From a virus (lineage: Duplodnaviria > Caudoviricetes), in IMG/VR virus record IMGVR_UViG_3300029288_000138, positions 19,618-83,617 of that record: a stretch of 64,000 nt of DNA; one strand, given 5' to 3'. The position numbers were made by a program, and so were the translations under genes. The notes under the pieces were generated by a model. The model made no database searches. It was not told where the DNA came from and was given only the letters and a program-made list of their open reading frames with translations. This document shows, in pieces, positions 1,847 to 43,968 of this stretch. The first letter of the stretch is position 1. The number at the start of each line of letters is the position of its first letter.

Positions 1847-2936
1847 GCAATTAGCAACGACACAAAAAGTAATTTCTTTAGAACCAATTCCAGGTGCTGA
1901 TAAAATAGAAGTAGCAACTATTTTAGGTTGGCATCTAGTGGTATTAAAAAATGAATTCAAAGTTGGTGAATTATGTGTATATTGTGAAGTCGATTCACTT
2001 TTACCTATAAAACCAGAATTTGAATTTTTAAGAAAATCTTGTTATTTGCCATCATGGAATGGATTTAGAATTCGTACGATACGACTGAGGGGGCAAGTAT
2101 CGCAAGGCATTGCATTTCCATTAAGTATTTTGCCAAACAAAAAATGGAAAGAAAATGATGATGTTACTGATGTTCTTGGTATCATAAAATATGATCCTCA
2201 GGCTCGAGAAGAAGAGAAGTTATTAAATAGACGAAAACACAATGCCTTTCATAAATTTCTGATGTCATTTAGATTTATTAGATATATCTACAAGAAATTT
2301 GGTGGAAAAAAAACATCATCTTGGCCCGGATTTATTAGCAAAACTGATGAGGAATGTGTACAAAAACTTGGTGAATTGATGCCAAAATTAGTTGGGAAAA
2401 AATTGTATTATTCGGAAAAACTAGATGGGCAATCCGGTACGTATGCTTATTATAAGAGAAAATTTTATGTTTGTTCAAGAAATATATGGCTAAGTATTAA
2501 AAATGATAGTAATTATTGGAAAATATCCGATAAATATAATATATTAAGTATTCTTAAAAATGAATATAAACAGAATACTTTGAACTTAGGAATACAAGGA
2601 GAAATTGTAGGACCGGGAATACAAGGAAATAAATATGAATTACCAGAAATTGATTTATTCGTATTTAATATATATGATATAAACCAACAAACTTATTTTA
2701 ATGAATTAGAAATAGAATTGTTTTGTAAGAAATACGGACTAAAAATGGTTCCAGTACTTGGATTTTTTATGCTTGATAATATCCCAATTACTGATTATTT
2801 CGTTGAATTATCCAGAGGTAAATCTATTTTAGATTTGGCTATTCTGAGAGAAGGAATTGTAATTAGGACTACTGCAGATAAATCAATATCATTTAAAGCA
2901 ATTAATCCTGATTTCTTAGAAAAATATAAAGAATAA
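1839..2936 (+). CDS. RNA ligase, Rnl2 family (DRB0094-like, N-terminal OB-like domain)
   Basis: Nucleotidyltransferase motifs SEKLDGQS, QGEIVG, FVF, REGIV, SFKAIN; N-terminus I.PIPGADKIEVA. Confidence 0.9.
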   Translation: MTRQLATTQKVISLEPIPGADKIEVATILGWHLVVLKNEFKVGELCVYCEVDSLLPIKPEFEFLRKSCYLPSWNGFRIRTIRLRGQVSQGIAFPLSILPNKKWKENDDVTDVLGIIKYDPQAREEEKLLNRRKHNAFHKFLMSFRFIRYIYKKFGGKKTSSWPGFISKTDEECVQKLGELMPKLVGKKLYYSEKLDGQSGTYAYYKRKFYVCSRNIWLSIKNDSNYWKISDKYNILSILKNEYKQNTLNLGIQGEIVGPGIQGNKYELPEIDLFVFNIYDINQQTYFNELEIELFCKKYGLKMVPVLGFFMLDNIPITDYFVELSRGKSILDLAILREGIVIRTTADKSISFKAINPDFLEKYKE

Positions 2937-2948
2937 AGGAGAATTAAA

Positions 2949-3293
2949 ATGAGAGATAAAACAAGAAACGAAATTGAGGAAATGATTGAAAGTTATATAG
3001 AAGATCATATCAACGCAAAACACCGTCAAAATCCAATTGGATGTGTGTATATGGGGGTAATCCGAAAGCTATTTTGGTCCGATTCTTATTGTCACCCGCA
3101 AGATGAACGAGTAACCACAAAGCAATGGGTTGATTTTTATAAAAAAGATGATGAGGCCAATGGATATATTAAAATCAATGGGGTGTGGTTCAGAAAAGAA
3201 GATGTTATTATATATGAAACCTATTATGAAACCCAATATCAAGAAAAACGTAAAAAAATCGAAAAAAGATTATCTATGCCAAGCAAAGATTAA
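2949..3293 (+). CDS. hypothetical protein
   Basis: GGAG RBS, intact ORF. Confidence 0.7.
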   Translation: MRDKTRNEIEEMIESYIEDHINAKHRQNPIGCVYMGVIRKLFWSDSYCHPQDERVTTKQWVDFYKKDDEANGYIKINGVWFRKEDVIIYETYYETQYQEKRKKIEKRLSMPSKD

Positions 3294-3330
3294 AGAAATA
3301 ATGAAACATCAATAAAGAATAAAAGGAGAA

Positions 3331-3732
3331 ATGATGAACGCAGATTTAATTATTTATTGTATTTGTATTATTTTAGCAGGATGGGTCTTTTGGGGACTGG
3401 GATATAATGCGGGTAAAAATTCCCAGCCGATAATTGCAACAGCTGAAAAACAAGAATGTGTTCATTCAGCTGTTTCTGCTTTAACACCCGAAATATTTAG
3501 TGGATATAAAGATGGTGATTATATTGTTTGTTATCCCGATATGGGAAATGGACATAGAATGACATTAAACGAAGAAATCATCAAAACGATTACAGAAAAA
3601 CTAATGGTAGACGCAGAATGCTTGATTAATGCGGATGGTGTTGATGAAGAAGATAGAATTTTAGGCAGAATAGAAGCAGAAACCAATATAATTAGGTTTT
3701 TAAAACGAAATCTTGGAAATGAGCCGGTATAA
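3331..3732 (+). CDS. hypothetical protein with N-terminal transmembrane helix
   Basis: GGAG RBS; hydrophobic N-terminal segment. Confidence 0.7.
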   Translation: MMNADLIIYCICIILAGWVFWGLGYNAGKNSQPIIATAEKQECVHSAVSALTPEIFSGYKDGDYIVCYPDMGNGHRMTLNEEIIKTITEKLMVDAECLINADGVDEEDRILGRIEAETNIIRFLKRNLGNEPV

Positions 3733-9387: not shown

Positions 9388-9756
9388 ATGAAAATCCTAA
9401 AAATTAAGAAAACTTTTGAAACAGCAGAAGAAGTTTATGCTAGTTCCGAATTTCATAAGATTTGGGAGGGTTTTAATGAAAACAAACCATTCATTCGATA
9501 TAAAAACGAGTTTACATTTTATAAAGCTTTTGTAACAGCCGGGCAATATGAGGATGATATTTGGATGTGGTATAAGTGCCTAGATGGTATGGTTTTTCTG
9601 CGAAAAATTTCGGTCTGTTCCTGTTTGGATAACGCAGATTTTCGCTTAGTTTTAATCAATGAAGAAAAAAATGAAATCGTATTGACAGATATGTTCTTCA
9701 AAAAATCCGTAAATCTCTCGAAAAACTTGCCAAAACTTAGAACAACTTTTTGCTAA
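9388..9756 (+). CDS. hypothetical protein
   Basis: Early promoter plus AAGGA RBS. Confidence 0.7.
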   Translation: MKILKIKKTFETAEEVYASSEFHKIWEGFNENKPFIRYKNEFTFYKAFVTAGQYEDDIWMWYKCLDGMVFLRKISVCSCLDNADFRLVLINEEKNEIVLTDMFFKKSVNLSKNLPKLRTTFC

Positions 9757-9761
9757 ACCGA

Positions 9762-11114
9762 ATGAACAACAAAGAACAATCAATCAAAATAATCAAAACT
9801 ATACAATCTAAAGGATTCGAAGCAGTTTGGGCCGGCGGGTGTGTACGAGATACTATTCTAAATCTCGAACCAAATGATTATGATATTGCTACAAATGCTA
9901 CTCCTAATGATATTGAAAGAATTTTTGATAATTCAAAATTCGACTACAAATTCATTATCAATAAACACTGTAATGGAAATAGATTTGGAGTATCATTAAT
10001 TAAAGGCATAGAAGTAGCAACATTCAGAACAGACGGGAAGTATGAGGACGGCCGCAGACCAGAAGGAGTAGAGTTTTGCGATATGGAACATGATGCAGCC
10101 AGGCGGGATTTTACATGCAATGCGTTATACATGGATCCAGTAGAAAATACCATTTATGATTTTGTCAATGGCATCAATGATATCAATAACAAAAAATTAA
10201 AATTCGTTGGTAAAGCAATTGATAGAATCAATGAAGATTATTTAAGGATGCTAAGATTTGTTAGATTCTTAGCAAAATTTGATTTTGATTATGACTACGA
10301 TGATATTGATACCATACAAAACAATGCTGAAAATATTAAAAAATTATCTGGTGAAGTAATATTAATGGAATTGGTCAAAATGGCCGTTTTATTTCCTGAT
10401 AAATTTGCTAAATGCATTGTGTTAATGAAGATGACAAATTTGTTACAATATATTTTTCCTAGTGTTGATAGGCTTGATACTATTGAACAAGATCCAATCA
10501 ATCATCCAGAGGGAGTGGTTTGGGAGCATACTATTCTAACAGTTTCTAAACTACAAAAAGATATTAAATTAGAAACTAAATTTGCTGCTTTATTTCATGA
10601 TACTGGAAAATATCAAACCAAAGGGTTCAATAAAGAAAAGAACAAAATTACATTTTATGGCCACGAAGATTTTAGTGTAGAAAATACCAAAGAAGAATTA
10701 CTGAATTTAAAAGCATCGAATGATTTTATTGACTCGATTGTATCATTAATATCAAATCATATGAGATTTAGATTGGTCAAAGAAATGAAAAAATCTAAAT
10801 TGATTAAATTTTTTGCATTAGATAATTTCAATGAACTAATGAAATTACATAAAGCAGATTGTTTAGGTAGTGATAATGATTTAGAATACTATAATTTCTG
10901 TACAGAAAAAATCAATGAATTAAAAGATGAAAATTCTAATAGTGTTACTTTACCCAAAAGATTAATTAATGGGGATGATTTAATTTCAATTGGTTATATC
11001 CCCGGAAAAATATTCAAAGATATTCTGGATACTGTATTTGATTTGCAATTGGAAGGCAGTATTAATACAAAAGAAGATGCAATACAATTCATACTTGATA
11101 AATATCATCTATAA
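9762..11114 (+). CDS. cca: CCA-adding tRNA nucleotidyltransferase with HD domain
   Basis: GGCVRD....DYDIAT, EVATFR, DAARRDFTCNA, EDYLRMLR; HD region H.EG.VWEHT...FHDTGK. Confidence 0.92.
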   Translation: MNNKEQSIKIIKTIQSKGFEAVWAGGCVRDTILNLEPNDYDIATNATPNDIERIFDNSKFDYKFIINKHCNGNRFGVSLIKGIEVATFRTDGKYEDGRRPEGVEFCDMEHDAARRDFTCNALYMDPVENTIYDFVNGINDINNKKLKFVGKAIDRINEDYLRMLRFVRFLAKFDFDYDYDDIDTIQNNAENIKKLSGEVILMELVKMAVLFPDKFAKCIVLMKMTNLLQYIFPSVDRLDTIEQDPINHPEGVVWEHTILTVSKLQKDIKLETKFAALFHDTGKYQTKGFNKEKNKITFYGHEDFSVENTKEELLNLKASNDFIDSIVSLISNHMRFRLVKEMKKSKLIKFFALDNFNELMKLHKADCLGSDNDLEYYNFCTEKINELKDENSNSVTLPKRLINGDDLISIGYIPGKIFKDILDTVFDLQLEGSINTKEDAIQFILDKYHL

Positions 11115-11763: not shown

Positions 11764-12258
11764 ATGGAAAAGGTTTTTTCAATCTATGGCGTAAAACTTA
11801 ATAACCAAGATCTGCAGAAATCTGCTGATGCGATCAATGCTATAGAATCACAAAAGAAATTGTATGAAGACGATGCTTATTTCTATTTAATCCAAATGGT
11901 TTATGATTTAAGACATAATCAAAAAACATTGTTTCATCCAGTATATCACAATAGAAATTTATCAACAGATATTGAAATTTACCAAGAGGACGACGATTTA
12001 TATATTGGAGTAGATTTTTCAAAAGTAAAATCTAGAAGTAATATTTATTCTAAAAAATATATTAATCAATATCTGGAAATAATAAAAGGTACATTAACTA
12101 TAATTTTAAATAATTTGTGTTTATTATCAAAATTAAATTGTGATTTTTATACGGGATTATATACGGATAACACAGAAGATTTAATTGAATGTTTAAAGGA
12201 GAATAAAGGAAATGATAACAGTTGGTGGAAAGTATACGAACGCCAAGATAATGATTGA
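11764..12258 (+). CDS. hypothetical protein (ends TGA TGA)
   Basis: Early promoter plus GGGG RBS; 3' end overlaps the rtcB start. Confidence 0.65.
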   Translation: MEKVFSIYGVKLNNQDLQKSADAINAIESQKKLYEDDAYFYLIQMVYDLRHNQKTLFHPVYHNRNLSTDIEIYQEDDDLYIGVDFSKVKSRSNIYSKKYINQYLEIIKGTLTIILNNLCLLSKLNCDFYTGLYTDNTEDLIECLKENKGNDNSWWKVYERQDND

Positions 12259-13531
12259 TGATATAGAACCTCAATGTTATTCTCAAATATTATCATTTGT
12301 TAATCACCCGGCATTTACAAATAATATTGCAATAATGCCAGACACTCATGCTGGCAAAGGCAGTGTAATAGGATTTACTATGCCATTAAATCCATATAGA
12401 ATTATACCTAATGTCGTAGGTGTAGATATTTCATGCGGAATTGTAGGCATGTGCTTCGGATTTGATGCCAATTTTAATCTAGATGACTCTGGTAAATATG
12501 CATTTGACACTAAGATTAGAGAATTAATTCCATTTGGCCAGACTGTTCATACTAAATCAGTTATTCATTTTAAAAATGATTTCCCTTGGAAAGAACTAAA
12601 TCAAAATGCTATTGAATTTATCAAGAACTTTTATAATAAATTTAAAATTAGAATAGAACCGCCAAATTATGATTATGACTGGTTTGAAAACAAATGTAAA
12701 CAAATCGGAGTAAAAGTAAAATATGCTATCGATAGCATAGGAACATTAGGCGGCGGGAATCATTTTATTGAAATTGGTAAATCTGAAAAGACTGGTTACT
12801 GGATAACTATTCATAGTGGTTCTAGAAATTTTGGTGCTAGAATATGTCAATATTGGCAAGGAATTGCTGAGAAGAAAATTAAAAATATAAAAATAAATGA
12901 ATTACAAAAAGAAATACTCGATATAAAAAGTAAGTATTCTGGTATAGATATTAATATAGAAATAAACAAAGCCAAAGAAAGGCTTGGATTAAATGATAAA
13001 GTATCTGGTGATCTATTATTTCTAGAAAACGAAGATGCTATCAGTTATTTAGTTGATATGTTATTTACTCAAATGTATGCGGAAGTAAATAGAAATTATA
13101 TGTCATATATACTTTGCAATATCATAAATTCTAGACCAGTAAAAACAATAAAAACTAATCATAATTTTATAGACTTTGAAGACTTTATTATCAGAAAAGG
13201 TGCTATAAAATCATATATTAATGAGGAAATGATAATTCCATTTAATATGGAAGATGGCATATTAATATGCACTGGTAAATCTAACCCAGAATGGAATTAT
13301 TCTGCTCCTCATGGTGCTGGTAGACTATTTTCTAGAAGTGAAGCAAAAAAGAAATTATCATTAGAAGACGCTAAAACTTCAATGGAGAATAGTGGTATTT
13401 TTACTACTGGTATTCCATTAGATGAAGTCAAAGGTGCTTATAAAGATTCAGATGTTATCAAACAAGCAATTGAACCAACTGCTGTTATAATCGACAAAAT
13501 CAACCCAATTCATAATCTAAAGGCTCTATAA
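12212..13531 (+). CDS. rtcB: RtcB RNA 3'-phosphate ligase
   Basis: MPDTHAGKG..IG, VGVDISCG, GTLGGGNHFIE, IHSGSRNFG, HNF, RKGA, SAPHGAGR, AYKD. Confidence 0.95.
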   Translation: MITVGGKYTNAKIMIDDIEPQCYSQILSFVNHPAFTNNIAIMPDTHAGKGSVIGFTMPLNPYRIIPNVVGVDISCGIVGMCFGFDANFNLDDSGKYAFDTKIRELIPFGQTVHTKSVIHFKNDFPWKELNQNAIEFIKNFYNKFKIRIEPPNYDYDWFENKCKQIGVKVKYAIDSIGTLGGGNHFIEIGKSEKTGYWITIHSGSRNFGARICQYWQGIAEKKIKNIKINELQKEILDIKSKYSGIDINIEINKAKERLGLNDKVSGDLLFLENEDAISYLVDMLFTQMYAEVNRNYMSYILCNIINSRPVKTIKTNHNFIDFEDFIIRKGAIKSYINEEMIIPFNMEDGILICTGKSNPEWNYSAPHGAGRLFSRSEAKKKLSLEDAKTSMENSGIFTTGIPLDEVKGAYKDSDVIKQAIEPTAVIIDKINPIHNLKAL

Positions 13532-23553: not shown

Positions 23554-23657
23554 ATTAAAATTATTGTTTTATTGATTAGAATTATTTAAATTATGATGCT
23601 TTTTAAAAATTAAAATTAGTTCGCCTTTAACTATTCAATAAGTTATTTAAAAATTGA

Positions 23658-23810
23658 ATTTGGGATGTAAAAACTGACGGCTATGGTGCATACCGCTATC
23701 AACGACCCAGTCTGGCTGCGCTGCCCACCTGAAATATGGTAAAAGTTGGATTTGCATGACTATGACCTTGGATTTTCGACAGAGAAAATCAAGTAGTACC
23801 CATCCTAAAT
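23658..23810 (+). ncRNA. Unassigned structured RNA
   Basis: 10-bp closing stem ATTTGGGATG/CATCCTAAAT; internal hairpins including CTTGGATTTTC/GAAAATCAAG; GC-rich, no ORF. Confidence 0.55.
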
Positions 23811-23821
23811 TATATATGAAA

Positions 23822-23927
23822 GGCTACTGTGGCGAAATGGAAACCGCAAGACCTGAACCCGTACCAGTAGAATATCTACTGGTGTATCTAAAGCGGCAAT
23901 GCAGGTTCGAATCCTGTCAGTAGCCCA
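23822..23927 (+). ncRNA. tRNA-like RNA 1 with non-canonical central domain
   Basis: GGCTACTG/CAGTAGCC acceptor, GCG/CGC D-stem, perfect T-arm GCAGG-TTCGAAT-CCTGT; 53-nt centre with hairpin ACCAGTAG/CTACTGGT and no 7-nt anticodon loop. Confidence 0.75.
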
Positions 23928-24404: not shown

Positions 24405-24477
24405 GTAGATGTAGCTAAATTGGTATAGCAGTTGGCTGTTAACCAACGGGATAAAAGTTCAAATCTTTTCGTCTACG
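24405..24477 (+). tRNA. tRNA-Asn(GTT)
   Basis: Cloverleaf; GTTGG-CTGTTAA-CCAAC. Confidence 0.9.
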
Positions 24478-31017: not shown

Positions 31018-31320
31018 AGGTGGGTATCTCAACTGGTAGAGACACGGTCTTTAACTAAGGAGCTTTATATTGGAAACAGTATAAATGAAAGAGAATGATA
31101 TCGGTGAACCCTGTAAAATGGCAATACCGAGGGAATAGATTTTTTAATCTAGCCCGTAGAGAGCAGATAATTCTCAACCTAAGTTATATTTTTGTAATAT
31201 GGTTAAGATGTGCTCCAGACTACAAACAACTTTTAGTTGGTGGTGAAAATCATAGTAGTATGCAAAACCGTATCGGGCCTCCAAAGCCTGGGCATGCGGG
31301 TTCAACTCCTGCCCCACCTG
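31018..31320 (+). tRNA. Intron-containing Trp-type tRNA with UCA anticodon (opal decoder) plus a second CCA anticodon-like arm
   Basis: Acceptor AGGTGGG/CCCACCT-G73; D-arm TCTC/GAGA; exons join as ACGGT-CTT|CAAA-ACCGT; then AT-CGGGC-CTCCAAA-GCCTG-GGCAT; T-arm GCGGG-TTCAACT-CCTGC. Confidence 0.85.
31052..31262 (+). mobile_element. Self-splicing group I intron (211 nt, IC3/tRNA-Leu(UAA)-like, no ORF)
   Basis: P1 CUU paired with GAG guide (U.G at the splice site); P2 TTTATATTG-GAAA-CAGTATAAA; P3 GAGAAT/ATTCTC; P4-P5 TCGGTGAACC..GGCAATACCGA; P6 GGG/CCC; P7 GAGCA/TGCTC; P8 AACC/GGTT; P9 region ACTAC/GTAGT with GAAA loop; terminal G 31262. Confidence 0.9.
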
Positions 31321-31346
31321 CGAGTAATTAATAAAAGGAGTTATGT

Positions 31347-31814: not shown

Positions 31815-31985
31815 ATGAAAGATGAAGAAATAATGGCATTGGTTGAACAAGAAGCAAATGAGTTTCGAGTTCAACATGATATGTGTATTCTTATTCCAGA
31901 CCATTTGTTAATAATGGCTATTCTGACTGGGGTAAAAATGGGAATGGATTTGTTTAACAAAGAAATTAAAAAACTCAATGAATAA
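31815..31985 (+). CDS. small hypothetical protein
   Basis: GAGGG RBS; 56 aa. Confidence 0.55.
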   Translation: MKDEEIMALVEQEANEFRVQHDMCILIPDHLLIMAILTGVKMGMDLFNKEIKKLNE

Positions 31986-32799
31986 ATTAGAATATGAAAC
32001 AAATTTAATCAAAGATCTGAATAAAGAATTATTCTCGGAAATAATTCCTAAACATTCGGAGAAATTACAGTTTGATTTACTCAAGCATAGTGCAATTCTA
32101 TCATATCGAGGTTCTTTAACTAACGGCACTTATATACCAGATTCAATTGATGACATTGATATAATTGGTATAATTATTCCCCCAATTGAATATGTCCTTG
32201 GCAATAAACAATTTGGTAGTAGAGATACTATAGAAATAAAAGATGGGAAATGGGATATTGTTTTATATTCAATCAAAAAATTCTTTAATCTATTAGTAAA
32301 AAATAATCCAAACATTGTTAGTGTATTATGGTTACCTGAAAGATTTGATATTCATATAAATGAAATTGGCATTGAAATTATAAAACACAGAGAAGAATTC
32401 ATTAATAAAAACATATACAATTCTTTTCTGGGCTATGCTAATGATCAATTAAATAGGATGACTAAATTTACTTTTGAAGGATACATGGGCGAAAAAAGAA
32501 AGCAACTAGTTAACAAATATGGATTTGATTGTAAGAATGCATCACACCTAATTCGATTACTAAAAATGGCATTAGAAGTAATTGTAACTAAGAAATTTAT
32601 TGTTTATCGAGAAAACGATGCCGATGAACTAGTAGCAATAAAAAGAGGTGATTGGTCAATTGAAAAAGTAAAAAAATATGCTAATGATTTATTTGCTAGT
32701 ATTGAATTACTTCGGGGAAGTACACAATTACCAGATGAAAATTATGACGCTGCAAATAAGTTACTAATAGAATTATCAAAAAAGTTTTATAGGATATAA
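31978..32799 (+). CDS. DNA polymerase beta-superfamily nucleotidyltransferase
   Basis: YRGSLTNGTY.PDS.DDIDIIGI; KNNPNIV; GFDCKNASHLIRLL. Confidence 0.85.
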   Translation: MNKLEYETNLIKDLNKELFSEIIPKHSEKLQFDLLKHSAILSYRGSLTNGTYIPDSIDDIDIIGIIIPPIEYVLGNKQFGSRDTIEIKDGKWDIVLYSIKKFFNLLVKNNPNIVSVLWLPERFDIHINEIGIEIIKHREEFINKNIYNSFLGYANDQLNRMTKFTFEGYMGEKRKQLVNKYGFDCKNASHLIRLLKMALEVIVTKKFIVYRENDADELVAIKRGDWSIEKVKKYANDLFASIELLRGSTQLPDENYDAANKLLIELSKKFYRI

Positions 32800-33626: not shown

Positions 33627-34130
33627 ATGATAAAATATAGTATATTTGCTGGCAAGTTTAATCCGCCCCATTATGGTCATTGTTTTGCTATTGATAAAGC
33701 ATTAGTAGTTAATCCGGAGAATATAATACTAATTTGCCCTTACATAGATAATAGCATGTCAGAGGAACAATATAATAATGTGTTAACTATGAGTAAATTA
33801 TTTTTTGTTAATCTATATTTAGAAGACTCGTATAAAATAATAAACTATAGATATTCACAATTTGCCGACTTATTAGAATATTTAACAATAACTTTAAAAC
33901 AAGCATCATTCAATATAATCATTGATAATAATACTAAATTATCAGAATGGAAAAAATATAATAGAATAATTGATGAAAATACATTTACAATTATAAAAAG
34001 AGATCTGAATATTAATGGTTCAATGATTAGGTCTTTATGTGAGAATAAAGAATATGATGGTGCAACTAAACATACATCAGAAGAAGTAATAGAATACGTA
34101 AAAACCAACAATCTATATCAAAGGAGTTAG
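33627..34130 (+). CDS. NadD-like HxGH nucleotidyltransferase
   Basis: FAGKFNPPHYGH; LSEWKKY..I; INGSMIR; TSEEVIEYVKTNNLY. Confidence 0.75.
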   Translation: MIKYSIFAGKFNPPHYGHCFAIDKALVVNPENIILICPYIDNSMSEEQYNNVLTMSKLFFVNLYLEDSYKIINYRYSQFADLLEYLTITLKQASFNIIIDNNTKLSEWKKYNRIIDENTFTIIKRDLNINGSMIRSLCENKEYDGATKHTSEEVIEYVKTNNLYQRS

Positions 34131-34600: not shown

Positions 34601-35365
34601 ATGAAAAAGAATGACGTTAGTGTTTCATTGGCAATTAATGGTAATTTGCTAAAAGAAAAAGTTATTAATAGTATTCCAACATTTCATCTATTAGATGACA
34701 CAGAATTTGCATTAGTTATAGACAATATGTCTAGAACCAAATATGCAGTGGATGTAATAATAGATGGAAAAAATCAATCTCATAGATTAATACTAAGAGA
34801 AGGTGAACATGTTAATCTAGAAAGATGGTTTGAGGATAATAGGAAATTCAAATTTGTTACATATGATGCTTTAAAGAATAATCCAGGTATTGCTAATAAT
34901 GGAAACATTACTTTAAAGTTTTATAAAGAACGAGTAGATCAACCTGTAATTACTTATACTCGATGAACTCCACAATATTATACTAATACTGGAACTATAT
35001 ATCCATTGTCTTGGCCATCAACTGGTGATTTCGTTTCATGCGCCACCGCTGGCAACAAAACGCGTTGTGTTGCCAGCAACACAACGGGTGGTTCTATTCA
35101 ATTAGTTAATAATGCACTATCAGCTGATACTATAAAAACAGGCAAAACTGAAATGGGCAATATTTCTAATCAAGAATTCAATACAGATTATTTTTCTACT
35201 TTTGAATATTTCCCTTCATTTGAAATTAACATGAAATTATTACCAGCAGAGGTTGCTCATTACGAATATAAAACAACTAATGATACAAGAGTATACTGCT
35301 CAGAATGCGGTAGAAAAATAAAAAATGGTTGAAAATATTGTGCTGGTTGCGGAAAAAAAGTATAA
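34601..35365 (+). CDS. hypothetical protein with C-terminal double zinc ribbon; TGA 34964 and 35330 read as Trp
   Basis: Two track ORFs in one frame; YCSECGRKIKNG*KYCAGCGKK has Trp at the usual position. Confidence 0.85.
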
Positions 35366-35443
35366 ATTTATCTTGTTTTCTATTCAGTATTATATTAAAT
35401 TATAGAGTTATTTAAAATTAATTAGTTATTTGAAAATAGAAAT

Positions 35444-35510
35444 GGGAGGTGGCGAGAATCGTATGGTTCATGTTTGTTCATTAATCAGGCCTACGACGTT
35501 AGTCACCCCC
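35444..35510 (+). ncRNA. Structured RNA A of ncRNA cluster
   Basis: GGGAGGTGGC/GTCACCCCC closing stem; inner TCGTA/TACGA. Confidence 0.5.
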
Positions 35511-35531
35511 TAGGTTTTTTGAAAATTTTGT

Positions 35532-35640
35532 CTCTCATATCAAATAGTATATGAGGAAACAGCATTGTCAAAAAAGCGAATGAGTACACCCGCAAGGCCT
35601 CTGGAGTCGCCAAGCGTCTTTAAGTCTTGCGGGAAAGATT
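35532..35640 (+). ncRNA. Structured RNA B of ncRNA cluster
   Basis: CTCATAT/ATATGAG and CCCGCAAG/CTTGCGGG stems. Confidence 0.5.
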
Positions 35641-35655
35641 TTTGAAAATTGAATA

Positions 35656-35768
35656 TGCTCGGCGGAATAGATACTTGTATACGGGTTACTATTTCAGAAC
35701 TCACAAGTCTACTGCATAAGTTGAGATAGATTTATCTTAGACAAGTCGATGGGTGGTCGATCCGAGCA
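35656..35768 (+). ncRNA. Structured RNA C of ncRNA cluster
   Basis: TGCTCGG/CCGAGCA closing stem; ACTTGT/ACAAGT. Confidence 0.5.
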
Positions 35769-35773
35769 GAAAA

Positions 35774-35892
35774 GGCTACTGTGGCGGAATAAATAGCATG
35801 CTTGGCAGACGCACGGCAAGATGTGTGGTGGGAAGCCAGATTAACCTTTAACATACATACATCATACGGGTTGAAATCCCGTCAGTAGCCCA
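35774..35892 (+). ncRNA. tRNA-like RNA 2 (same ends as 23822-23927)
   Basis: Starts GGCTACTGTGGCG, ends GTCAGTAGCCCA; T-arm ACGGG-TTGAAAT-CCCGT; enlarged D-loop; central GATGTGTG/CATACATC stem and no canonical anticodon loop. Confidence 0.75.
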
Positions 35893-35917
35893 AAGTTTTT
35901 TAATGAAATTGTTATAT

Positions 35918-35964
35918 AGGTCACAGAGTTTATTTTTTCCCTTCTTTTCTCTGTGACCTTTTTT
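35918..35964 (+). terminator. Intrinsic terminator closing the ncRNA cluster
   Basis: AGGTCACAGAG/CTCTGTGACCT followed by T run. Confidence 0.75.
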
Positions 35965-35996
35965 ATTTTACCAAACTAAAATATTTATATTTGTAT

Positions 35997-36509
35997 ATGA
36001 TAAAATTCAAAAAAATAGTACTAGAACTATCGTTAAAAGATAGAGCAGAAGATATAGCTCAAATAGTTCATAGTGGTCAAAATAGACGTTCGTCTGGTGC
36101 ACCATACATAATTCATCCTGTTAGAGTTCAATTACTAGCAAAACGATTTGGATTGGGAAACGATGAACAATTGATTGCAATATTACATGATACATATGAA
36201 GATAGTAATAACAAATCTTTGGTAATTGCAAATATTAACAATAAATTTGGTAATGAAATTGCTAAAAATGTTATTGCATTGTCACACGAACGAGGTACAG
36301 ATTATACTAATTATGTATATGAATTATCCAAAAAATACCCAAAAGCATTCAATGTTAAACTATTGGATATGTACGATAATTTAATTGATAATCCGTCAAG
36401 TTCGCAAAAAATAAAATATTCTGAAACATTACTATTTTTAATAAATCATGGAGTAAGAATAAATAATGGTATAAAAAACGATTTAATGAAAATCATAGGG
36501 AGAAAATAA
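35997..36509 (+). CDS. HD-domain RelA/SpoT-like (p)ppGpp hydrolase (small alarmone hydrolase)
   Basis: HSGQNRR..GAPYIIHPVRV; AILHDTYED; VKLLDMYDNL. Confidence 0.88.
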   Translation: MIKFKKIVLELSLKDRAEDIAQIVHSGQNRRSSGAPYIIHPVRVQLLAKRFGLGNDEQLIAILHDTYEDSNNKSLVIANINNKFGNEIAKNVIALSHERGTDYTNYVYELSKKYPKAFNVKLLDMYDNLIDNPSSSQKIKYSETLLFLINHGVRINNGIKNDLMKIIGRK

Positions 36510-36510
36510 A

Positions 36511-36750
36511 ATGGTAAAATTAAAAGATTTAACAGAAGAACAAAAAATTAGAAAAGTTATAAGAAATATGATAAAAGAAGTAATTGATTTTGATCCTACT
36601 GGCTCTTGAAAAAAATTAGATGATTCTGGTGAAGAAATTAAAAGTATAAATAAACCAGAAGAACTAGCGGAATTGCAAGCAGATGAAGATGCTAAGAATA
36701 AAGTATCAAAAGTAAAAGTAGAAAAGTCTGAAACAGAAAAGAAAGTATAA
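36511..36750 (+). CDS. small protein, MVKLKDLTEE leader; TGA 36607 read as Trp
   Basis: IDFDPTGS*KKLDD; absent from the track. Confidence 0.75.
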
Positions 36751-37328
36751 TGCGAAAAATAGTTATATATCCTGGTAGATTTCAACCGCCTCATATCGGA
36801 CACTTAAAAACTTATAATCTACTATGTAAACATTTTGGGAAAGATAATGTTTATATCTGTACTGCGAACAAGATTAAATATCCAGAAAGCATATTTGATT
36901 TTGAAACTAGAAAATACTTACTAACTAGAATTCTAAAAATATCTCAATCAAACATAATACAAGTAAGTAGTCCATATACACCAGAGCAATTTTTTAAAGG
37001 TTCGGGTATAACACCAGATGAAGTAATACTATTTGCTGCTTTAGGTAATAAGGATAAAGATAGAATCAAATTGAATGTTACATTAAAAAATGGAAATCTA
37101 GGTTATTATATTAGTCCACCGAAAGGCAAAGAAGTCTATTACAATGCGAATAAGCACGGTTATATTCTATTCTATAAAGATATTATGAGTGCTGTTAATC
37201 TAAGAAAAGCATTATTAGATATGAATATTGGTAATGATGTAAAAGTTAAATTATGGAATGAAATGACTGGTTTAGATGAAAAAGAATTAAATTTTGTTAT
37301 GCAAAAAGTTAATGAAACTTTAAAATAA
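36750..37328 (+). CDS. HIGH-motif cytidylyltransferase-like protein
   Basis: IYPGRFQPPHIGHLKTY. Confidence 0.8.
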   Translation: MRKIVIYPGRFQPPHIGHLKTYNLLCKHFGKDNVYICTANKIKYPESIFDFETRKYLLTRILKISQSNIIQVSSPYTPEQFFKGSGITPDEVILFAALGNKDKDRIKLNVTLKNGNLGYYISPPKGKEVYYNANKHGYILFYKDIMSAVNLRKALLDMNIGNDVKVKLWNEMTGLDEKELNFVMQKVNETLK

Positions 37329-37620: not shown

Positions 37621-38709
37621 ATGGGCGGAGCATACGGTCATATAAATCATCCTTACGAAAATTTAGATTTAACTTTCGGTGATCTAAAAAAGATCATACA
37701 GAAAGCATTATGCGCAAAGTTAAAAAATGCTAAAGAAAAAATGGATGGCATAAATTGTTTTGTTAGTTTTATAGATAATAAAATTGTGTATTCTAGAAAC
37801 AAAGGCAATCTAATAAACAATGGCATTTCTAGTACAGAATTAATTGAACTGTTTGATAAAAATAAAATAGAAAAATTAACCAGAAGTATTAAATTATTTA
37901 CAGATGAAATAGAGTTAATATTTAAGAATACACCTAAGATTTGTAATATCTTTTGCAATGGTAAATATTGGTTAAACGTTGAAATTTTAAATACTAATAA
38001 TATTAATGTAATAGACTATGAAAACAATTATATAGTAATTCATGATATATTAAAAGTAGAAAACGGGAAATTAATATGTACTAATAATAATAAAAAGCGT
38101 CAATGTATGAAATCTATCAAATCATATCAACCTATATATGAATATTATAAACCAATTGATATTGATAGAAAAATAAAATTGAATAAAATTACTGATAATA
38201 GTTTTTTATTGAGATTAAATAATGAAATGCAGAATTACGATTTAACTAACAAGAATACAATAAAAGACTATTGGGATAGAAAAGTAGACTGGTATGTAAA
38301 TAGATATAAAGTAACACCAGATACTATATTTTTGGATATGAGTAAATCGGAAATAAAAAAGTTTATTCTATATCCTCTATACAAATTGTTTATTGACTTG
38401 GGCGATATAGTAATTAGTAATGCAACTAATTATTTGTCAACTGATAGTAAGCACGACTTTACTGGTAGGATTGTTAATAAAATAGATAAACTTAACCCAG
38501 AAATCAATCCAGATCTATTATCTGAAAAATTAAAAGAAAAATTTAATACATATAAACATGAATTAATTAGTAGTAATATATTTAATAATAATCCCAATTT
38601 TAATCCAATAGAAGGGATTGTATTTGAATATAAAAATAAAAAGTATAAATTAACTGGTTTATTTTCAATAATAAATCAAATTTTAGGAATTAATCGATAT
38701 GCCAGATAA
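37621..38709 (+). CDS. conserved huge-phage protein (ATP-grasp/ligase-like motifs)
   Basis: MGGAYGHINHPYE; EKMDGIN; IEGIVFEY....YKLTGLFS.INQILG. Confidence 0.75.
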   Translation: MGGAYGHINHPYENLDLTFGDLKKIIQKALCAKLKNAKEKMDGINCFVSFIDNKIVYSRNKGNLINNGISSTELIELFDKNKIEKLTRSIKLFTDEIELIFKNTPKICNIFCNGKYWLNVEILNTNNINVIDYENNYIVIHDILKVENGKLICTNNNKKRQCMKSIKSYQPIYEYYKPIDIDRKIKLNKITDNSFLLRLNNEMQNYDLTNKNTIKDYWDRKVDWYVNRYKVTPDTIFLDMSKSEIKKFILYPLYKLFIDLGDIVISNATNYLSTDSKHDFTGRIVNKIDKLNPEINPDLLSEKLKEKFNTYKHELISSNIFNNNPNFNPIEGIVFEYKNKKYKLTGLFSIINQILGINRYAR

Positions 38710-39019
38710 AATAAAATTACGAAATATTATCAAAGAAGAATATGGTTCTATCTATCAATTAGATAACCCATATGATCCAGAGGTATTAATTCGAGGCTTT
38801 GGTCGGATGAGATGGAGTCAATTAAAAAAGCATATAGAAAATAAAATTGAGGATGAAATTATAACTATGGCCAAAAGAGGTGATTATTCGGCGCTATCAT
38901 CATACTTGTTTGCTCCTCATAACTCATTCAAATTATTCGTAGATGCAGCTAATGATATAAATAAAGAATTAAATAGCCCTACTATAAAACGGAAAATCAC
39001 CCTATTGAAAGGAAAATAG
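38699..39019 (+). CDS. hypothetical protein, KIKLRNIIKEE leader
   Basis: Intact ORF overlapping the upstream stop. Confidence 0.7.
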   Translation: MPDKIKLRNIIKEEYGSIYQLDNPYDPEVLIRGFGRMRWSQLKKHIENKIEDEIITMAKRGDYSALSSYLFAPHNSFKLFVDAANDINKELNSPTIKRKITLLKGK

Positions 39020-39021
39020 TA

Positions 39022-39231
39022 ATGGCAATAAAATTAAAAAAACTATTAGAAGAAGATATTAATATTCCAGTAAATATTGGTGATACAATACTAGTTGGTA
39101 AATTTAGAAATAAACCAATTGTTATTAAAACCATTGAATATGATGAACAAGGGTTACCAATAATCAATGGCAGAAAGGGCGTTTCATTTAAAATAAAAGA
39201 AAGAAAATTACCAATTAACATTTTTCAATAA
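39022..39231 (+). CDS. small conserved protein
   Basis: MAIKLKKLLEE leader; IGDTILVGKFRNKPIVIK.I..DEQG.P.ING. Confidence 0.75.
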   Translation: MAIKLKKLLEEDINIPVNIGDTILVGKFRNKPIVIKTIEYDEQGLPIINGRKGVSFKIKERKLPINIFQ

Positions 39232-39305
39232 AATTTTCTATTTTTCTCTTGTTTTTTAGATATTGATTCATTAAATTATATTGTTATTTAAATATAGAAA
39301 TAGAT

Positions 39306-39444
39306 TTGATGGACAAAAAGAGTTCCTATAATACAACTTGCTAAGTAAATTTACTCTTCGTCCATCAATATTTATAATCTAATTAGGCAAAAGAAGTTCC
39401 TATATTTTTTTACTGCAATAAAAGACACTACTTCTCGCCTAATT
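39306..39444 (+). promoter_or_regulatory. Tandem pair of homologous hairpins in the 5' leader
   Basis: TTGATGGAC-AAAAAGAGTTCCTATA...TACTCTTC-GTCCATCAA (39306-39368) and AATTAGGC-AAAAGAAGTTCCTATA...TACTTCTC-GCCTAATT (39381-39444). Confidence 0.7.
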
Positions 39445-39466
39445 TAATTTTTATGGGGGAAACAAA

Positions 39467-41491
39467 ATGTTATCATCAATTAAACTTTTCAATTCAGTAA
39501 TTATCAAAGAACATCAAAAAGAACTAAATCCATCAGATTTAAAATTTGCTAATATCTTTAAAGAAACTTATAAGTATGGATTTATATTTAGTCCTGAAGT
39601 TGTATCTGAATATTCATTTAATGACTTAAAACAAATAACCGCTGAAATGATCAGTGTTGGTATATTCAAAAGTTCAGAACAAATGAATAAAACATTTCAG
39701 ACTTGGACTAAAATGAGAGATTCTGATATTGAAACTCTTGTTATTGAACAATTAATTCATTATATGACAACCTATGGGTTTGAAGAACTAGGAATTTATA
39801 GTGAAGACACTGTTTATTTTCCTACAAAAGATTTGGATATACCTGATATTGATGTTGAGAAATTTAATTTCACTGTTATTAAAGGTATCACTGAAATAGA
39901 ACTAGCAAAAAGAACTCTAAAATTTGTTAATTCCGGAATTGCATTAAAGGAAGAAACAATAAAAGATGTTTTCGATGTTATTTCGACCCTGCATACTAAC
40001 AGTATAATTTCAAACGAAGAGATTGAAACAGTTAAGAATAAAGAATTAAAAATAAAAGTGTATGAACACTTAAATATTGTTCCAAAGAATGCATCAGAAT
40101 TTTTAAGAGTAATTATTAATAAAGCAACTGGAAATGCACTATTAATCAAATCTAAATCAGTTATTGAGCAATTAAAAAAATTAGGAAATGATGATGTATT
40201 TAAATATTTTAGTTTATATAAACTATTGTATAAAGATTTTAATGCATTATCAAAATCATTTTTTAGATTTAAACCATTGTTTTTAGCATTAAAAAGAACT
40301 ATTTTTGATTATAAAACAAAAGAAATCAATAAAATCATTAATAAAATTAGAAAAGATGCTAATTTCTTACATACACCAATGTCAGTCGATTTTTTAAATT
40401 CTATTACAGAAAAACTCAAAAGCGGTGAAGAAATTAATGAACAAGAATTAATGAAAACCCTAGATCGTGTAAATGTATTTAGAAAAGTTAAATTACTAAA
40501 CGCACTGGATTTTAGATCACAAGATGTTAAATCTATTCTATATAGAATAAGAAATAGCAAAGCTTTTGTTACAGATTTTGAATCTAATTATCTAGAAAAT
40601 AAAAGTGTTCAATTAGAATATAATAAAATTAAAAACATCATTCTATCTTCAATCGCAAAAACAGTTGAAAAAAACCTTAGTGGAAAAAAAGTATACATTC
40701 CTGATAACATTTTTTATGCGATTCCCAATTCTGAAAAGCAATTTGTAGGAAATTTTCCAAACGGAACTTATATTAAAATTGAAAAAGATGATTTGCTATT
40801 TGGGGTACATTGGTTTGACTTATCTTCTTCTAATAGTGACGATCGATTACGTAATCGATTGCAATCAGATTATAATAAAAGAATTGATTTAGATTTATCA
40901 ATGTTAACTATTGCAGGCGAGAAATTGGGTTGGGATGGTGGATATAGAACAAATGACAGAACAATTTTATTTTCCGGCGATAATACTTCTGCTCCAAGAC
41001 CTAACGGAGCCAGTGAAATGTTTTATATGAATAATATAAATAATGAAGAGTTTCTTGTATATTTAAATTATTTTAATACCAATGCCAGTCTAGATAATAA
41101 AGTTCCATATACATTATTTATTGGTAAAGAAAAAGTCAACAAAGCCTTTGACAGACAGTATATGATTAATCCTAACAATATTATATGTCAACTTCCGTGT
41201 CAAATAAGTTCTGGGCAAAAACAAACTATAATTGGATTTATATCAATCAATAAAAATGAATCTAGATTTTATATAACAAATTATTCACTTGGAAATAATA
41301 AAACCGTTAGAAATAATAAGTATAGTAAAAAAGCAAATGAGTTTTTATCGGCATATTATAAATCTAATACATATCTAGATGATGTATTAGCAATTGCTAA
41401 AATTAACATAGTTAATGATGCAAAAGATGCTGATATAGATTTATCAGTAAATAATATCAGTAAAGATACATTTTTATCAATTTTCATGTAA
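39467..41491 (+). CDS. large conserved protein with C-terminal TerD-like domain
   Basis: EQLIHYMTTYG; FFRFKPLFLALK; GVHW...RIDLDLS...IGWDG.Y....FSGDNTSAP.PNGASE. Confidence 0.75.
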   Translation: MLSSIKLFNSVIIKEHQKELNPSDLKFANIFKETYKYGFIFSPEVVSEYSFNDLKQITAEMISVGIFKSSEQMNKTFQTWTKMRDSDIETLVIEQLIHYMTTYGFEELGIYSEDTVYFPTKDLDIPDIDVEKFNFTVIKGITEIELAKRTLKFVNSGIALKEETIKDVFDVISTLHTNSIISNEEIETVKNKELKIKVYEHLNIVPKNASEFLRVIINKATGNALLIKSKSVIEQLKKLGNDDVFKYFSLYKLLYKDFNALSKSFFRFKPLFLALKRTIFDYKTKEINKIINKIRKDANFLHTPMSVDFLNSITEKLKSGEEINEQELMKTLDRVNVFRKVKLLNALDFRSQDVKSILYRIRNSKAFVTDFESNYLENKSVQLEYNKIKNIILSSIAKTVEKNLSGKKVYIPDNIFYAIPNSEKQFVGNFPNGTYIKIEKDDLLFGVHWFDLSSSNSDDRLRNRLQSDYNKRIDLDLSMLTIAGEKLGWDGGYRTNDRTILFSGDNTSAPRPNGASEMFYMNNINNEEFLVYLNYFNTNASLDNKVPYTLFIGKEKVNKAFDRQYMINPNNIICQLPCQISSGQKQTIIGFISINKNESRFYITNYSLGNNKTVRNNKYSKKANEFLSAYYKSNTYLDDVLAIAKINIVNDAKDADIDLSVNNISKDTFLSIFM

Positions 41492-41574
41492 AATTATTTT
41501 TAATTACTATATAGATTTCTCTTGTTTTCTATTCATTTTAATATTAAATTATAGAGTTATTTAAAATAAAGATT

Positions 41575-41722
41575 AAAAAATGATAAAGCTTAAAGGCTAC
41601 CTATCAATTACAATGCTATTCTAGACAAGGTATTGTAATATGGTGTTGCTTGAGCTCGGCAATAGAAAAGCCTGAAACCGAAGGGCTCACGTTTGGGGAC
41701 TAGAAATAGTCCCCATTTTTTT
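41575..41722 (+). ncRNA. Stand-alone small RNA (own promoter and terminator, no ORF)
   Basis: Promoter 41522; stems AGGCT/AGCCT, TTACAATGC/GTATTGTAA, TGTTGC/GCAATA; terminator TGGGGACTA/TAGTCCCCA-T7 at 41694-41722. Confidence 0.6.
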
Positions 41723-41834
41723 GATATTTTTTATTTTTTCTCTTGCTTTCTATAGAATTTAATATTAAATTATAGAGTTATTTAAAATTAAAGAAAGGAG
41801 AGTAAAAAAATGCGGGCGCAAAATAGAAAAACCA

Positions 41835-41880
41835 ATAACAAGTCAACGGCGGAAGCCGTTGACTCCGGTGCTGGGTTATA
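41835..41880. repeat. AAC/GTT-bounded palindromic element
   Basis: ATAAC-A-AGTCAACGGC-GGAA-GCCGTTGACT-...-GTTAT. Confidence 0.6.
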
Positions 41881-41892
41881 CCGGACGAAAGG

Positions 41893-42216
41893 ATGTGCAA
41901 AATGAGGGTGGACGCCGGAGTTAGCCATTTAAATGATTCTGACTATTTCCAAATGTCAGACAGGTGCTATATTATTGATAAAATGATTCAGGAAATTCTA
42001 GAAACACACCCGGTATATTTTGGTGATGAAAGAATCAGAAAAGTAATCCAAAATTCCGCTGAAAACCTAAGAACAGGTTTTCAGCTAGCCGATGGGATTG
42101 GCTTTACGCTCCAAGAATCAAAAAAAAAACCCCCAACCAGACAACCGCTCAAGGCGTTAAATCAACGCAAGGGTTATGTCGTATTTGCAACAAATTTCTA
42201 TCTTGGTTTGGCCTGA
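41893..42216 (+). CDS. hypothetical protein (ends TGA TGA); GC-rich
   Basis: GAAAGGA RBS; start may be ATG 41902. Confidence 0.55.
   Translation: MCKMRVDAGVSHLNDSDYFQMSDRCYIIDKMIQEILETHPVYFGDERIRKVIQNSAENLRTGFQLADGIGFTLQESKKKPPTRQPLKALNQRKGYVVFATNFYLGLA
42138..42178. repeat. Dispersed hairpin element, copy 1 (copy 2 at 63841-63880)
   Basis: CAGACAAC-CGCTC-AAG-GCGTT-aaatc-AACGC-AA-GGGTT. Confidence 0.65.
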
Positions 42217-42234
42217 TGAAAATCAGCAGAGCAA

Positions 42235-42640
42235 GAAATATAGGAATAGAAATTCATCGGACGTATGTATTAGCAGTTCTTGATGGAGTGAATAGAGATT
42301 TCGGCGCGCTGAATAAGCCCTCGGCTCTAGCGGCAAAGTTATTAGGGTAACTTATCCGACGCGGATTAGGCGTTTCAAATGCGAGTGTGCTAAGTTTAGC
42401 AAAACCAAAAAATACTTTATGTTTGAAAATCCGGTTTTAGATGCAATCGCGAAAGACGAATTAATAACCAAATGAAATCTGTGGTAGAGTTCATAATACA
42501 TGTGACGGGGAATGCCCTGTTTATAAATTGAATAGAAGTAACCACCTAAATAGCATGTTATACAGATGTAATTGCTATGGGGATGGAAATGCAATGCTTA
42601 AATTTATTAGAAATTCTACAAATAAATAACTAAATCCCAC
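42235..42640 (+). ncRNA. Candidate large structured RNA
   Basis: ~400 nt, GC-enriched, no convincing ORF even with TGA read-through; many hairpins (ATCCG/CGGAT, GCTAA/TTAGC, AAAACC/GGTTTT); followed by a terminator. Confidence 0.45.
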
Positions 42641-42650
42641 ATAATTATAA

Positions 42651-42677
42651 AAAGAAGTGATATATCACTTCTTTTTT
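42651..42677 (+). terminator. Intrinsic terminator (possibly bidirectional)
   Basis: AAAGAAGTGA-TATA-TCACTTCTTTTTT. Confidence 0.8.
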
Positions 42678-42816
42678 CATGTTTAAACAATCTAATTAGT
42701 TTTTCAAAAATTTTATAATTACAAATTCGATTAGAACAAGTCTGACTTGTATAAGATGGATCAACTAAAATAAGTTTTTCTTTATTTTTTATCATTTTTT
42801 ATATTTATATATAGAT

Positions 42817-43209
42817 ATGATTAAACTAAGCAACATATTAACAGAATCTTTGACAAAACAAATGATAGTAAATATCGCCAATGAATTATTTAAATATTAC
42901 AATGCAAATCAACTAGAATTAAAATTTACTAATGATAAAACTTTGTTAGGAAACTTTGATTTTGATAATAATATAGTTTATGTTAACCCGAATTATAATA
43001 AAGAAGAAATTACTATTACTATATTGCATGAAATAAAGCACCTTTTACAAAAGAAATCAATAGGCAAGTCTAAATTTATTCACAATTGTGAAATAGAATT
43101 GAGTAACGGTAAAGATCAAAAAAGTGTTTCATATGAAATAGAAGCAGAAAAATGAGCAAATTCTGAATATAACAAGATTTGAAAAAATAAACTTTTTGGA
43201 GAGAAATAA
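42817..43209 (+). CDS. HEXXH metallopeptidase-like protein; 2 TGA read as Trp
   Basis: MIKLSNILTE leader; TILHEIKH; YEIEAEK*A. Confidence 0.8.
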
Positions 43210-43968
43210 ATGTTGTTTTCTGGAAAAATATTAAAACAAGGCGATGCCGGTGTAGAAATAGAAGAGTTGCAAATACGACTGGCCGGGTTTGGTGGTACAA
43301 TATGAAGTGGAAATTTTGGCCCAAATACAAAAAAACAAGTTATGCAATTTCAAAAAGATTATATTGGGGATGGTGTTCCTAGTGGTGTAGTTGATTTAAA
43401 AACTTTAAGGAATATTATTACATTTACAGAAGAATTTAATATTGATTTTAATAAATTAAAATGCCCGTGTGGAAAATGTAATGGGTTTGGTCTTGGAAAA
43501 TATAAAAACGTGTATATTCCATCTAAGCCAAAAATAGAGGCATATTATATGTATGAATATCCTGGAATACATAAGGCTATTTTATATGCTTATAAGGCAT
43601 GTATGTTTTATGCTAAAAAATATGGGTTTCCATTACCAGTAATTAATTGTGGATATAGATGTAGTGCAAATAATATTCAAAATAAAAGAAGCAGTACAAA
43701 TCATTGTGGTAAAGCAATAGATATAGACTTACCAATGGTAAAGAAAACAGAAAAAGATAATCAAATAGATACGGATAGATGCAATACTTTCAGAACTAAA
43801 ATGATAGAATTTGGAAATTTCCAAATTGGTTGATCTAATAGTAATCAAAAATCATTAGAACCCGAAAATATTGCCCCAACTTGGATTCATATGGATATTA
43901 GAAATTATGAAAGTAAATATTTATTAGATAGATTCTTTGTTAAATCAAATGATGAATTAAATAAATAG
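43210..43968 (+). CDS. Endolysin: peptidoglycan-binding domain plus M15-like zinc peptidase; TGA 43303 and 43831 read as Trp
   Basis: ELQIRLAGFGGTI*SGNFGPNT; GYRC....STNHCGKAIDID; FQIG*S....SLEP..IAPTWIHMDIR. Confidence 0.9.

Follow-up and report, generated by a model that had tools for sequence, protein, structure and literature searches.

In the phage DNA analysed here, a window of 64,000 nt, the sequence evidence supports a protein-free unit of four structured RNAs (A to D), bounded by a real promoter on one side and a real terminator on the other. The unit is probably the precursor of stable small RNAs that are matured by the tRNA-processing machinery, with units C and D as RNase P-type substrates and with CCA addition as the finishing step. 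The features of the unit, in window coordinates, are as follows.

35373-35401, + strand: promoter, with a -35 element TTGTTT (35373-35378), a 17-nt spacer, and a -10 element TAAATT (35396-35401), followed by AGAGTTATTTAAAAT
35402-35443, + strand: leader, holding the conserved AGAGTTATTTAAAAT of the promoter family and the first TTTGAAAAT (35429-35437)
35444-35510, + strand: unit A, a 67-nt irregular hairpin, then UAGG and U6
35518-35526, + strand: TTTGAAAAT spacer ahead of unit B
35528-35643, + strand: unit B, hairpins 35533-35556 and 35589-35633 (GC-rich), then AAAGA and U5
35641-35649, + strand: TTTGAAAAT spacer ahead of unit C
35657-35767, + strand: unit C, an expanded cloverleaf of about 111 nt
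35774-35892, + strand: unit D, tRNA-like, about 117 nt, without an anticodon loop
35918-35964, + strand: intrinsic terminator, with an 11-bp stem (35918-35928/35949-35959), a 20-nt loop, and T6

An early promoter had been proposed at 35373 in the preliminary description. As a promoter it was confirmed: it belongs to a set of 15 near-identical + strand copies in the 83.6-kb source contig, and is therefore taken as a real, recurrent signal. Members of the family are nearly identical over about 50 nt (tcTTGTTTTCTATTCATTTTTATATTAAATTATAGAGTTATTTAAAATTAAAGA); the sites include 127, 1619, 9325, 11705, 23094, 37332, 41522, and 63621. We infer the early timing from the promoter class, which is sigma-70-like and is found mostly upstream of genes with few or no in-frame TGA codons. 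The terminator expected at the other end was recovered as a hairpin followed by a T-run. It folds with -17.4 kcal/mol (z = -7.5; as-stable shuffles, 0/200), and it was missed by a simple consensus scan because its loop is long.

The absence of a credible ORF between these two signals, also noted at the outset, was borne out. The region 35366-35990 (625 nt) is the largest + strand gap in the window without ORFs of at least 60 aa (code 4), and the longest ORF on either strand of the region has 54 aa. GC3 of the mini-ORFs in the region was 0.36-0.52, above the range of 0.14-0.24 observed for 14 real genes, and by this measure the mini-ORFs do not look translated. The GC content of the RNA unit is 0.38-0.52 in 100-nt windows, compared with about 0.25 in its flanks and about 29% in the whole 64,000 nt. 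Folding of the whole unit gave z-scores of -4.7 on the + strand and -3.1 on the - strand, and the same four domains returned when all 541 nt were folded at once. The z-scores of the single units were modest (-2.2 to -3.2). Four GC-rich, self-contained folds had been described; A, C, and D stood as such, and B was found to be two hairpins rather than one closed fold.

The window was taken from an IMG/VR viral record of 83.6 kb, estimated at 42% of the genome. All genes are oriented on the + strand. Judged from its marker genes, including the Gp23 major capsid protein, an intein-interrupted Gp20 portal, and a T4-type large terminase, the phage is a distant T4-type myovirus. The closest GenBank capsids, those of Flavobacterium phage immuto and Microcystis phage Mel-JY01, are 47-49% identical. 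Counting TGA as a sense codon increased the coverage by ORFs of at least 100 aa from 0.68 to 0.86 and the longest frame from 685 to 2149 codons. Among 42 in-frame TGA positions in the terminase, the portal, and one other protein, homologues had W at 18, Y or F at 15, and G at 1, indicating that TGA is read as Trp in this phage. TGA is common in structural and packaging genes (15 in the terminase, 23 in a 2146-aa protein) and almost absent from the accessory genes between 22300 and 41500.

The RNA unit is located 3.6 kb downstream of the last (31742) of the 22 tRNA genes called in the window. The gene upstream ends at 35365, and the zinc ribbon it encodes is complete only with readthrough of an in-frame TGA. 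The cassette is flanked by two small cytidylyltransferase-like genes (33627-34127 and 36750-37325) and adjoined by an HD_4 gene (35991-36506). Downstream of the terminator, this HD-domain gene is preceded by TATTTATA (35974-35981), not by the common promoter; its start is likely ATG 35997 rather than TTG 35991.

The closing helix of unit A is GC-rich, with 9 bp and one bulged A, and is followed by a 5x5 internal loop and an inner stem (-24.3 kcal/mol; z = -2.2). In unit B (-34.2 kcal/mol; z = -2.7) the two hairpins are joined by an A-rich single-stranded linker; the predicted layout resembles that of a base-pairing sRNA. Runs of five to six U residues occur 4-5 nt past the last helix of A, B, and D. 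The claim that each of the first three RNAs is preceded by a spacer proved correct. Copies of TTTGAAAAT start at 35429, 35518, and 35641, and each copy is separated by 6-7 nt from the base at which pairing begins in A, B, or C. Over the whole window the motif is not enriched (8 copies vs. 6.9 expected); these three copies are packed within 213 nt. The same motif, or a one-off variant, was also found 6-7 nt before the RNA at 23662 and the tRNA-Asn at 24405, and the tRNA-Asp is directly abutted by the related TTTTGAAATT. From this distribution, TTTGAAAAT appears to be a recurring spacer between RNA genes, as either a processing site or a start signal.

If TTTGAAAAT were a -10-like start signal, A to D could be separate, individually terminated sRNAs that base pair with host or phage mRNAs. 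The constant distance between motif and RNA, which is kept at the tRNA-Asn and the 23662 RNA, and the U-runs after A, B, and D are compatible with this, as is the classic sRNA layout of B, in which a 5' hairpin and a hairpin resembling a terminator are joined by an A-rich linker. However, no acceptable -35 element was found 17 nt upstream of the motifs, a distance of 4-5 nt between helix and U-run is poor terminator geometry, and C and D are only 6 nt apart, with neither motif nor U-run between them. Antisense matches of the RNA unit to the phage genome (3 at k = 12 vs. 4.2 expected) were not in excess over shuffled sequences either. We therefore consider separate sRNAs unlikely; as antisense regulators of phage genes, for which complementarity was no greater than in shuffles, A to D were rejected. 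A polycistronic precursor, as originally suggested, is plausible; since the U-runs after A, B, and D could terminate transcription, the RNAs need not share one precursor.

By their predicted folds, units C and D are tRNA-like. The 6-bp terminal helix of C, GCUCGG/CCGAGC, closes off three arms at 35664-35695, 35707-35742, and 35745-35761, and the last arm abuts the 3' strand of this helix in the fashion of a T arm. With 6 bp and a 5-nt loop this arm is atypical as a T arm. The minimum free energy of C, -33.2 kcal/mol, equals the energy of the cloverleaf-constrained fold, and a z-score of -3.2 was obtained on the slightly longer stretch 35652-35772. Its 5' motif GGCGGAAUAGAUA is common to unit D (shared 13-mer). 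Both units have GGCGGAAUA(G/A)AUA in common, and both carry a D-arm-like GGCGGAAU resembling that of the phage tRNA-Leu(UAA).

Unit D (z = -2.6 for 35774-35890) begins with an 8-bp acceptor helix and a UG linker; the T arm ACGGG-UUGAAAU-CCCGU stacks on this helix, and the RNA has CA as its 3' tail. A long arm (35820-35863) takes the place of the anticodon arm. The part after the linker can be read in two ways, as a 3-bp D stem with an enlarged 23-nt loop (-33.4 kcal/mol) or as a small hairpin (-37.8 kcal/mol). In the first reading the D loop ends in UGGCAGA, as in tRNA-Leu and T5 RNA1. Unit D lacks the canonical C56 of the T loop, and its minimum-energy fold has no D stem.

A paralogue of D was identified at the head of the tRNA island, where it forms part of a second locus of the same type.

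23564-23927: second protein-free RNA cassette, with a variant promoter at 23564, a closed fold at 23662-23808, and an RNA at 23822-23927

The closed fold of this cassette, about 150 nt, is preceded by TTTAAAAAT-TGAATTT. On the basis of the promoter variant, the fold, and the tRNA-like RNA, the phage has at least two such cassettes. In the RNA 23822-23927 the acceptor helix (8/8 pairs) and both flanks match those of D exactly. Its D arm and T loop are canonical, and its central hairpin differs from that of D; the Rfam tRNA model scores it at 35.7 bits through the acceptor, D, and T arms and skips the middle. Two T-stem pairs differ between the RNAs, one by a compensatory change from A-U to G-C, the other on a single side, from G.U to A-U. 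Their D loops and central arms are unrelated, and the middle cannot be aligned. The acceptor helix is conserved in sequence, beyond mere pairing, which suggests that it is read by a protein. When 267 kb of reference and related sequence, the T4 and T5 loci among it, was searched with a covariance model of D and 23822-23927, no third member was recovered. The covariation evidence is limited to this one pair of paralogues because no orthologue was found.

The tRNA resemblance could also be a relic, with C and D, and perhaps A and B, being drifted duplicates of tRNA genes and the unit being transcribed junk. The likeness of GGCGGAAU to the phage tRNA-Leu(UAA) would fit such an origin, as would the T arm and 3' acceptor strand of D, which match the phage tRNA-His at 18 of 25 positions (manual count), and the failure to find homologues. 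In decayed genes, however, one would not expect every helix to be intact, the acceptor to be identical in two otherwise diverged copies with a compensatory change in the T stem, a full promoter and a strong terminator to be retained, or GC enrichment to be maintained against a background of 29% GC. Decay is accordingly improbable.

A single large RNA of about 470-550 nt that works as a whole, in the manner of ROOL or GOLLD, is very improbable. ROOL and GOLLD are typically associated with a phage tRNA island. The unit is similar in size to ROOL, and the z-score of the whole is better than that of any single unit; however, each domain closes on itself, the minimum-energy fold shows no long-range pairing except a weak AU helix, which the centroid lacks, and nothing in Rfam matched at E<=10, not even ROOL or GOLLD, for which permissive filters were used. 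Micropeptides, such as the product of a 23-codon ORF from ATG 35441 inside unit A, are hardly credible: there is a GGAGG-like string at 35445-35450, 12 nt upstream of a second ATG (35463), and ribosome-binding sites are weak in some genes of this phage, but the string is sequestered in the helix that closes unit A, GC3 of the 23-codon ORF is 0.50 compared with 0.14-0.24 in genes, and no ORF of the region exceeds 54 aa.

For the preferred reading, a precursor processed into stable small RNAs, the following steps are proposed. The host RNA polymerase would start at the 35373 promoter and stop at the 35918-35964 hairpin, giving a precursor of about 550 nt that would be cut into A (~67 nt), B (~105 nt), C (~111 nt), and D (~117 nt). 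As C and D present a minihelix of acceptor plus T arm, the substrate shape of RNase P, their ends are expected to be set by tRNA-maturation enzymes. Cleavage in the AU-rich UUUGAAAAU linkers would fall to a single-strand endonuclease, and the 3' ends would be completed by the CCA-adding enzyme of the phage itself. This enzyme is part of an RNA repair and maturation set encoded at four loci in the window, including RtcB and RlaP.

9750-11111: CCA-adding enzyme of the RNA repair/maturation set
12212-13528: RtcB of the RNA repair/maturation set
31978-32796: RlaP of the RNA repair/maturation set
37621-38706: 362-aa protein of the RNA repair/maturation set

The 362-aa protein of this set has a ligase-like K-M-D-G motif and is without a Pfam match.

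A possible function of D and its paralogue is suggested by this RNA-repair and tRNA context. Both would be tRNA mimics that have retained the acceptor helix, the T arm, and, in 23822-23927, the canonical D arm; they carry an unrelated arm in the position of the anticodon arm and therefore cannot decode. They may act as ligands or decoys for a tRNA-binding factor, and the reader of the acceptor might be an aminoacyl-tRNA synthetase, a processing or repair enzyme, or a host nuclease that targets tRNA. That these RNAs are anticodon-less mimics engaging a protein that recognises the invariant acceptor helix is a tentative proposal. The 8-bp acceptor could be read as a histidine-type identity (G-1:C73) or as a selenocysteine-type 8/5 helix. 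An anti-defence or host-takeover role was put forward in the preliminary description; the hints of it are contextual ones, namely the RNA-repair genes and the tRNA island. In its specific form, D and 23822-23927 would be chargeable or protein-binding mimics recognised by a specific host factor, and the cassette would be an RNA countermeasure, expressed early, that titrates either a translation factor or a defence nuclease directed against tRNAs, with A to C as three more undescribed RNA classes in cooperation; we regard this as unlikely.

RNAs A to C had not been recognised initially, and the Rfam search agreed: no family matched the region, either at the gathering threshold or at E<=10. The tRNA model (RF00005; gathering threshold 29 bits) gave no match in 35300-36050 even at E<=10. 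A homologue search for the unit likewise came up empty in IMG/VR, among GenBank phages, and through the proteins encoded nearby. No homologue of the RNA unit was seen with blastn in 50,697 phage records, and exact and gapped DNA patterns for D in IMG/VR gave nothing or chance matches inside coding sequence. No homologue was found with the promoter pattern in IMG/VR. The HD-domain neighbour has no relative in IMG/VR and retrieved only itself among 5.8 billion proteins. Five IMG/VR relatives were reached through the capsid protein, and these were without tRNA genes.

In JGI metagenomes the promoter pattern was found at 7 loci; the phage or its kin occur in metagenomes Ga0172381, Ga0172380, and Ga0265297. 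One of these, L016 (Ga0172381_10031316), represents the same phage (96-99% identity) and covers only 38575-43562. This strain is missing 245 nt (window 42194-42438) within a 573-nt ORF-free gap; the missing stretch contains a GC-rich island (42249-42415). The other loci share the promoter and have no genes in common with our contig, and thus may come from elsewhere in the same genome or in a related one. Among them, L010 contains an RNA region that may be another part of the genome of this phage or of a close relative.

Ga0265297_10006217, 2620-3700, - strand: L010 RNA region

In this region an odd tRNA is followed by the promoter, then by structured RNA poor in ORFs (about 600 nt; z = -3.1) that includes a UUUUUUGAAAU spacer, and last by a bona fide tmRNA, an arrangement that supports promoter-driven, protein-free RNA units as a habit of the lineage. 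It yields no orthologue of the RNA unit for covariation analysis. The L010 tRNA is unusual (Rfam, 34.8 bits) and was missed by ARAGORN; the tmRNA (Rfam, 77.6 bits) has the tag GNYNPVYALA. In the window itself, a GC-rich pseudo-ORF at 31040-31332 hides an odd tRNA-like gene with a weak Rfam match to tRNA-Sec (22.5 bits), in which the anticodon loop reads CUCCAAA (CCA, Trp). Just upstream of this gene, at 31040-31236, there is a weak match to a group I intron.

Compared with tRNAs, D and 23822-23927 share the acceptor helix, a two-nucleotide linker starting with U, the T arm, and the D-arm motif, and in D the acceptor stacks directly on the T arm (5 bp, 7-nt loop). In contrast to tRNAs, inspection and constrained folds of A to D revealed no 5-bp anticodon arm with a 7-nt loop, U33, and purine 37. 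Neither D nor 23822-23927 was called by ARAGORN at default settings; D was called only at the 80% threshold, as a poor "tRNA-Pro" with a 21-nt "intron". An intron-split tRNA-Phe was rejected, as the exons cannot join into an anticodon stem, and a suppressor tRNA(UCA) hidden in A to D was also rejected, as no UCA lies in a credible anticodon loop.

Unit D resembles tmRNA in combining a tRNA-like acceptor/T domain with a non-tRNA insert. It differs in having C3-G70 instead of G3:U70, in the absence of a tag frame with a hydrophobic tail, and in its length of only 117 nt. No tmRNA (RF00023) was detected at the RNA unit by Rfam or by the ARAGORN tmRNA search, and a two-piece or mini tmRNA was rejected. 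Y RNA (YrlA) was rejected as well: the 83.6-kb contig (~42% of the genome) contains no TROVE (Rsr) gene, and there was no Rfam match.

For decades, small stable RNAs encoded beside tRNA genes have been familiar from phages T4 and T5. The T5 record (NC_005859) contains RNA1 (tRNA-like)-RNAI-RNAIII-tRNAHis, RNA2 (tRNA-like)-RNAIV, RNA2H, and RNA3, and the stable RNAs are annotated there with unknown function. Like the RNA unit, these are head-to-tail clusters of 70-170-nt RNAs, each with a terminal helix, and T5, like the phage studied here, carries a large tRNA set. RNA1 and RNA2 of T5 have acceptor, D, and T arms together with a foreign central arm, which is the plan of our tRNA-like units. 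RNA2 has an 8-bp terminal helix and a 5-bp T arm, as in unit D, and 18 nt of its T arm are identical to the T arm of 23822-23927. Sequence homology was, however, not shown, blastn giving T-arm-sized matches only, and the T5 clusters are interleaved with tRNA genes, whereas the RNA unit lies beyond the last tRNA with a promoter and terminator of its own.

A covariance model of T5 RNA1 was built from seven diverse homologues (74-100% identity). With default filters it gave no hit on C, D, or 23822-23927; with filters off, D scored 11.8 bits and 23822-23927 scored 8.6 bits. With this model the tRNA-Cys of this phage and two T5 tRNAs scored 8.6-9.1 bits, and the odd tRNA-like stretch 31232-31332 scored 11.7 bits, which points to generic tRNA-likeness as the source of the signal. 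The central-arm GGAACAUCC of T5 RNA1, invariant in the seven homologues, is absent from A to D. T5 RNA1 is kept across Demerecviridae down to 74% identity (T5-like phages, L019-L025) with compensatory changes in the acceptor stem (GGAAUA/UGUUCC vs. GAAGUA/UGCUUC); in most Demerecviridae records it is unannotated or overlaid by hypothetical proteins.

In T4, two adjacent stable RNAs, rnaC (species 1) and rnaD (species 2), of 139 and 119 nt, directly follow the tRNA cluster, and rnaC has a canonical T arm next to the 3' terminal strand. In the phage studied here, the second cluster (23662-23927) heads the tRNA island, and the RNA unit lies 3.6 kb past the last tRNA gene. The roles of rnaC and rnaD were still called unknown in 2010 and 2022 (PMC3014915, PMC9697503), and both have been reported as late RNAs (PMC9697503), whereas the unit described here stands behind an early-type promoter and contains four RNAs rather than two. 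Searches of the whole contig with rnaC and rnaD gave best nhmmer E-values of 7.6-99, none in the region of the RNA unit, and blastn-short gave chance words of 9-12 nt only. From these comparisons, the likeness to the stable RNAs of T4 and T5 appears to be one of kind and architecture, without shown homology.

With these precedents, the cassette is best viewed as a known kind of feature rather than an unprecedented one. What is added is that a very distant T4-like lineage with a rewritten genetic code has such a cassette too, in a free-standing form with its own promoter and terminator and with a paralogous tRNA mimic elsewhere in the genome. The clean boundaries make the four RNAs easy to produce and test. 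If such cassettes recur in unrelated large phages, they are probably a general part of how these phages handle the tRNA and translation machinery of the host.
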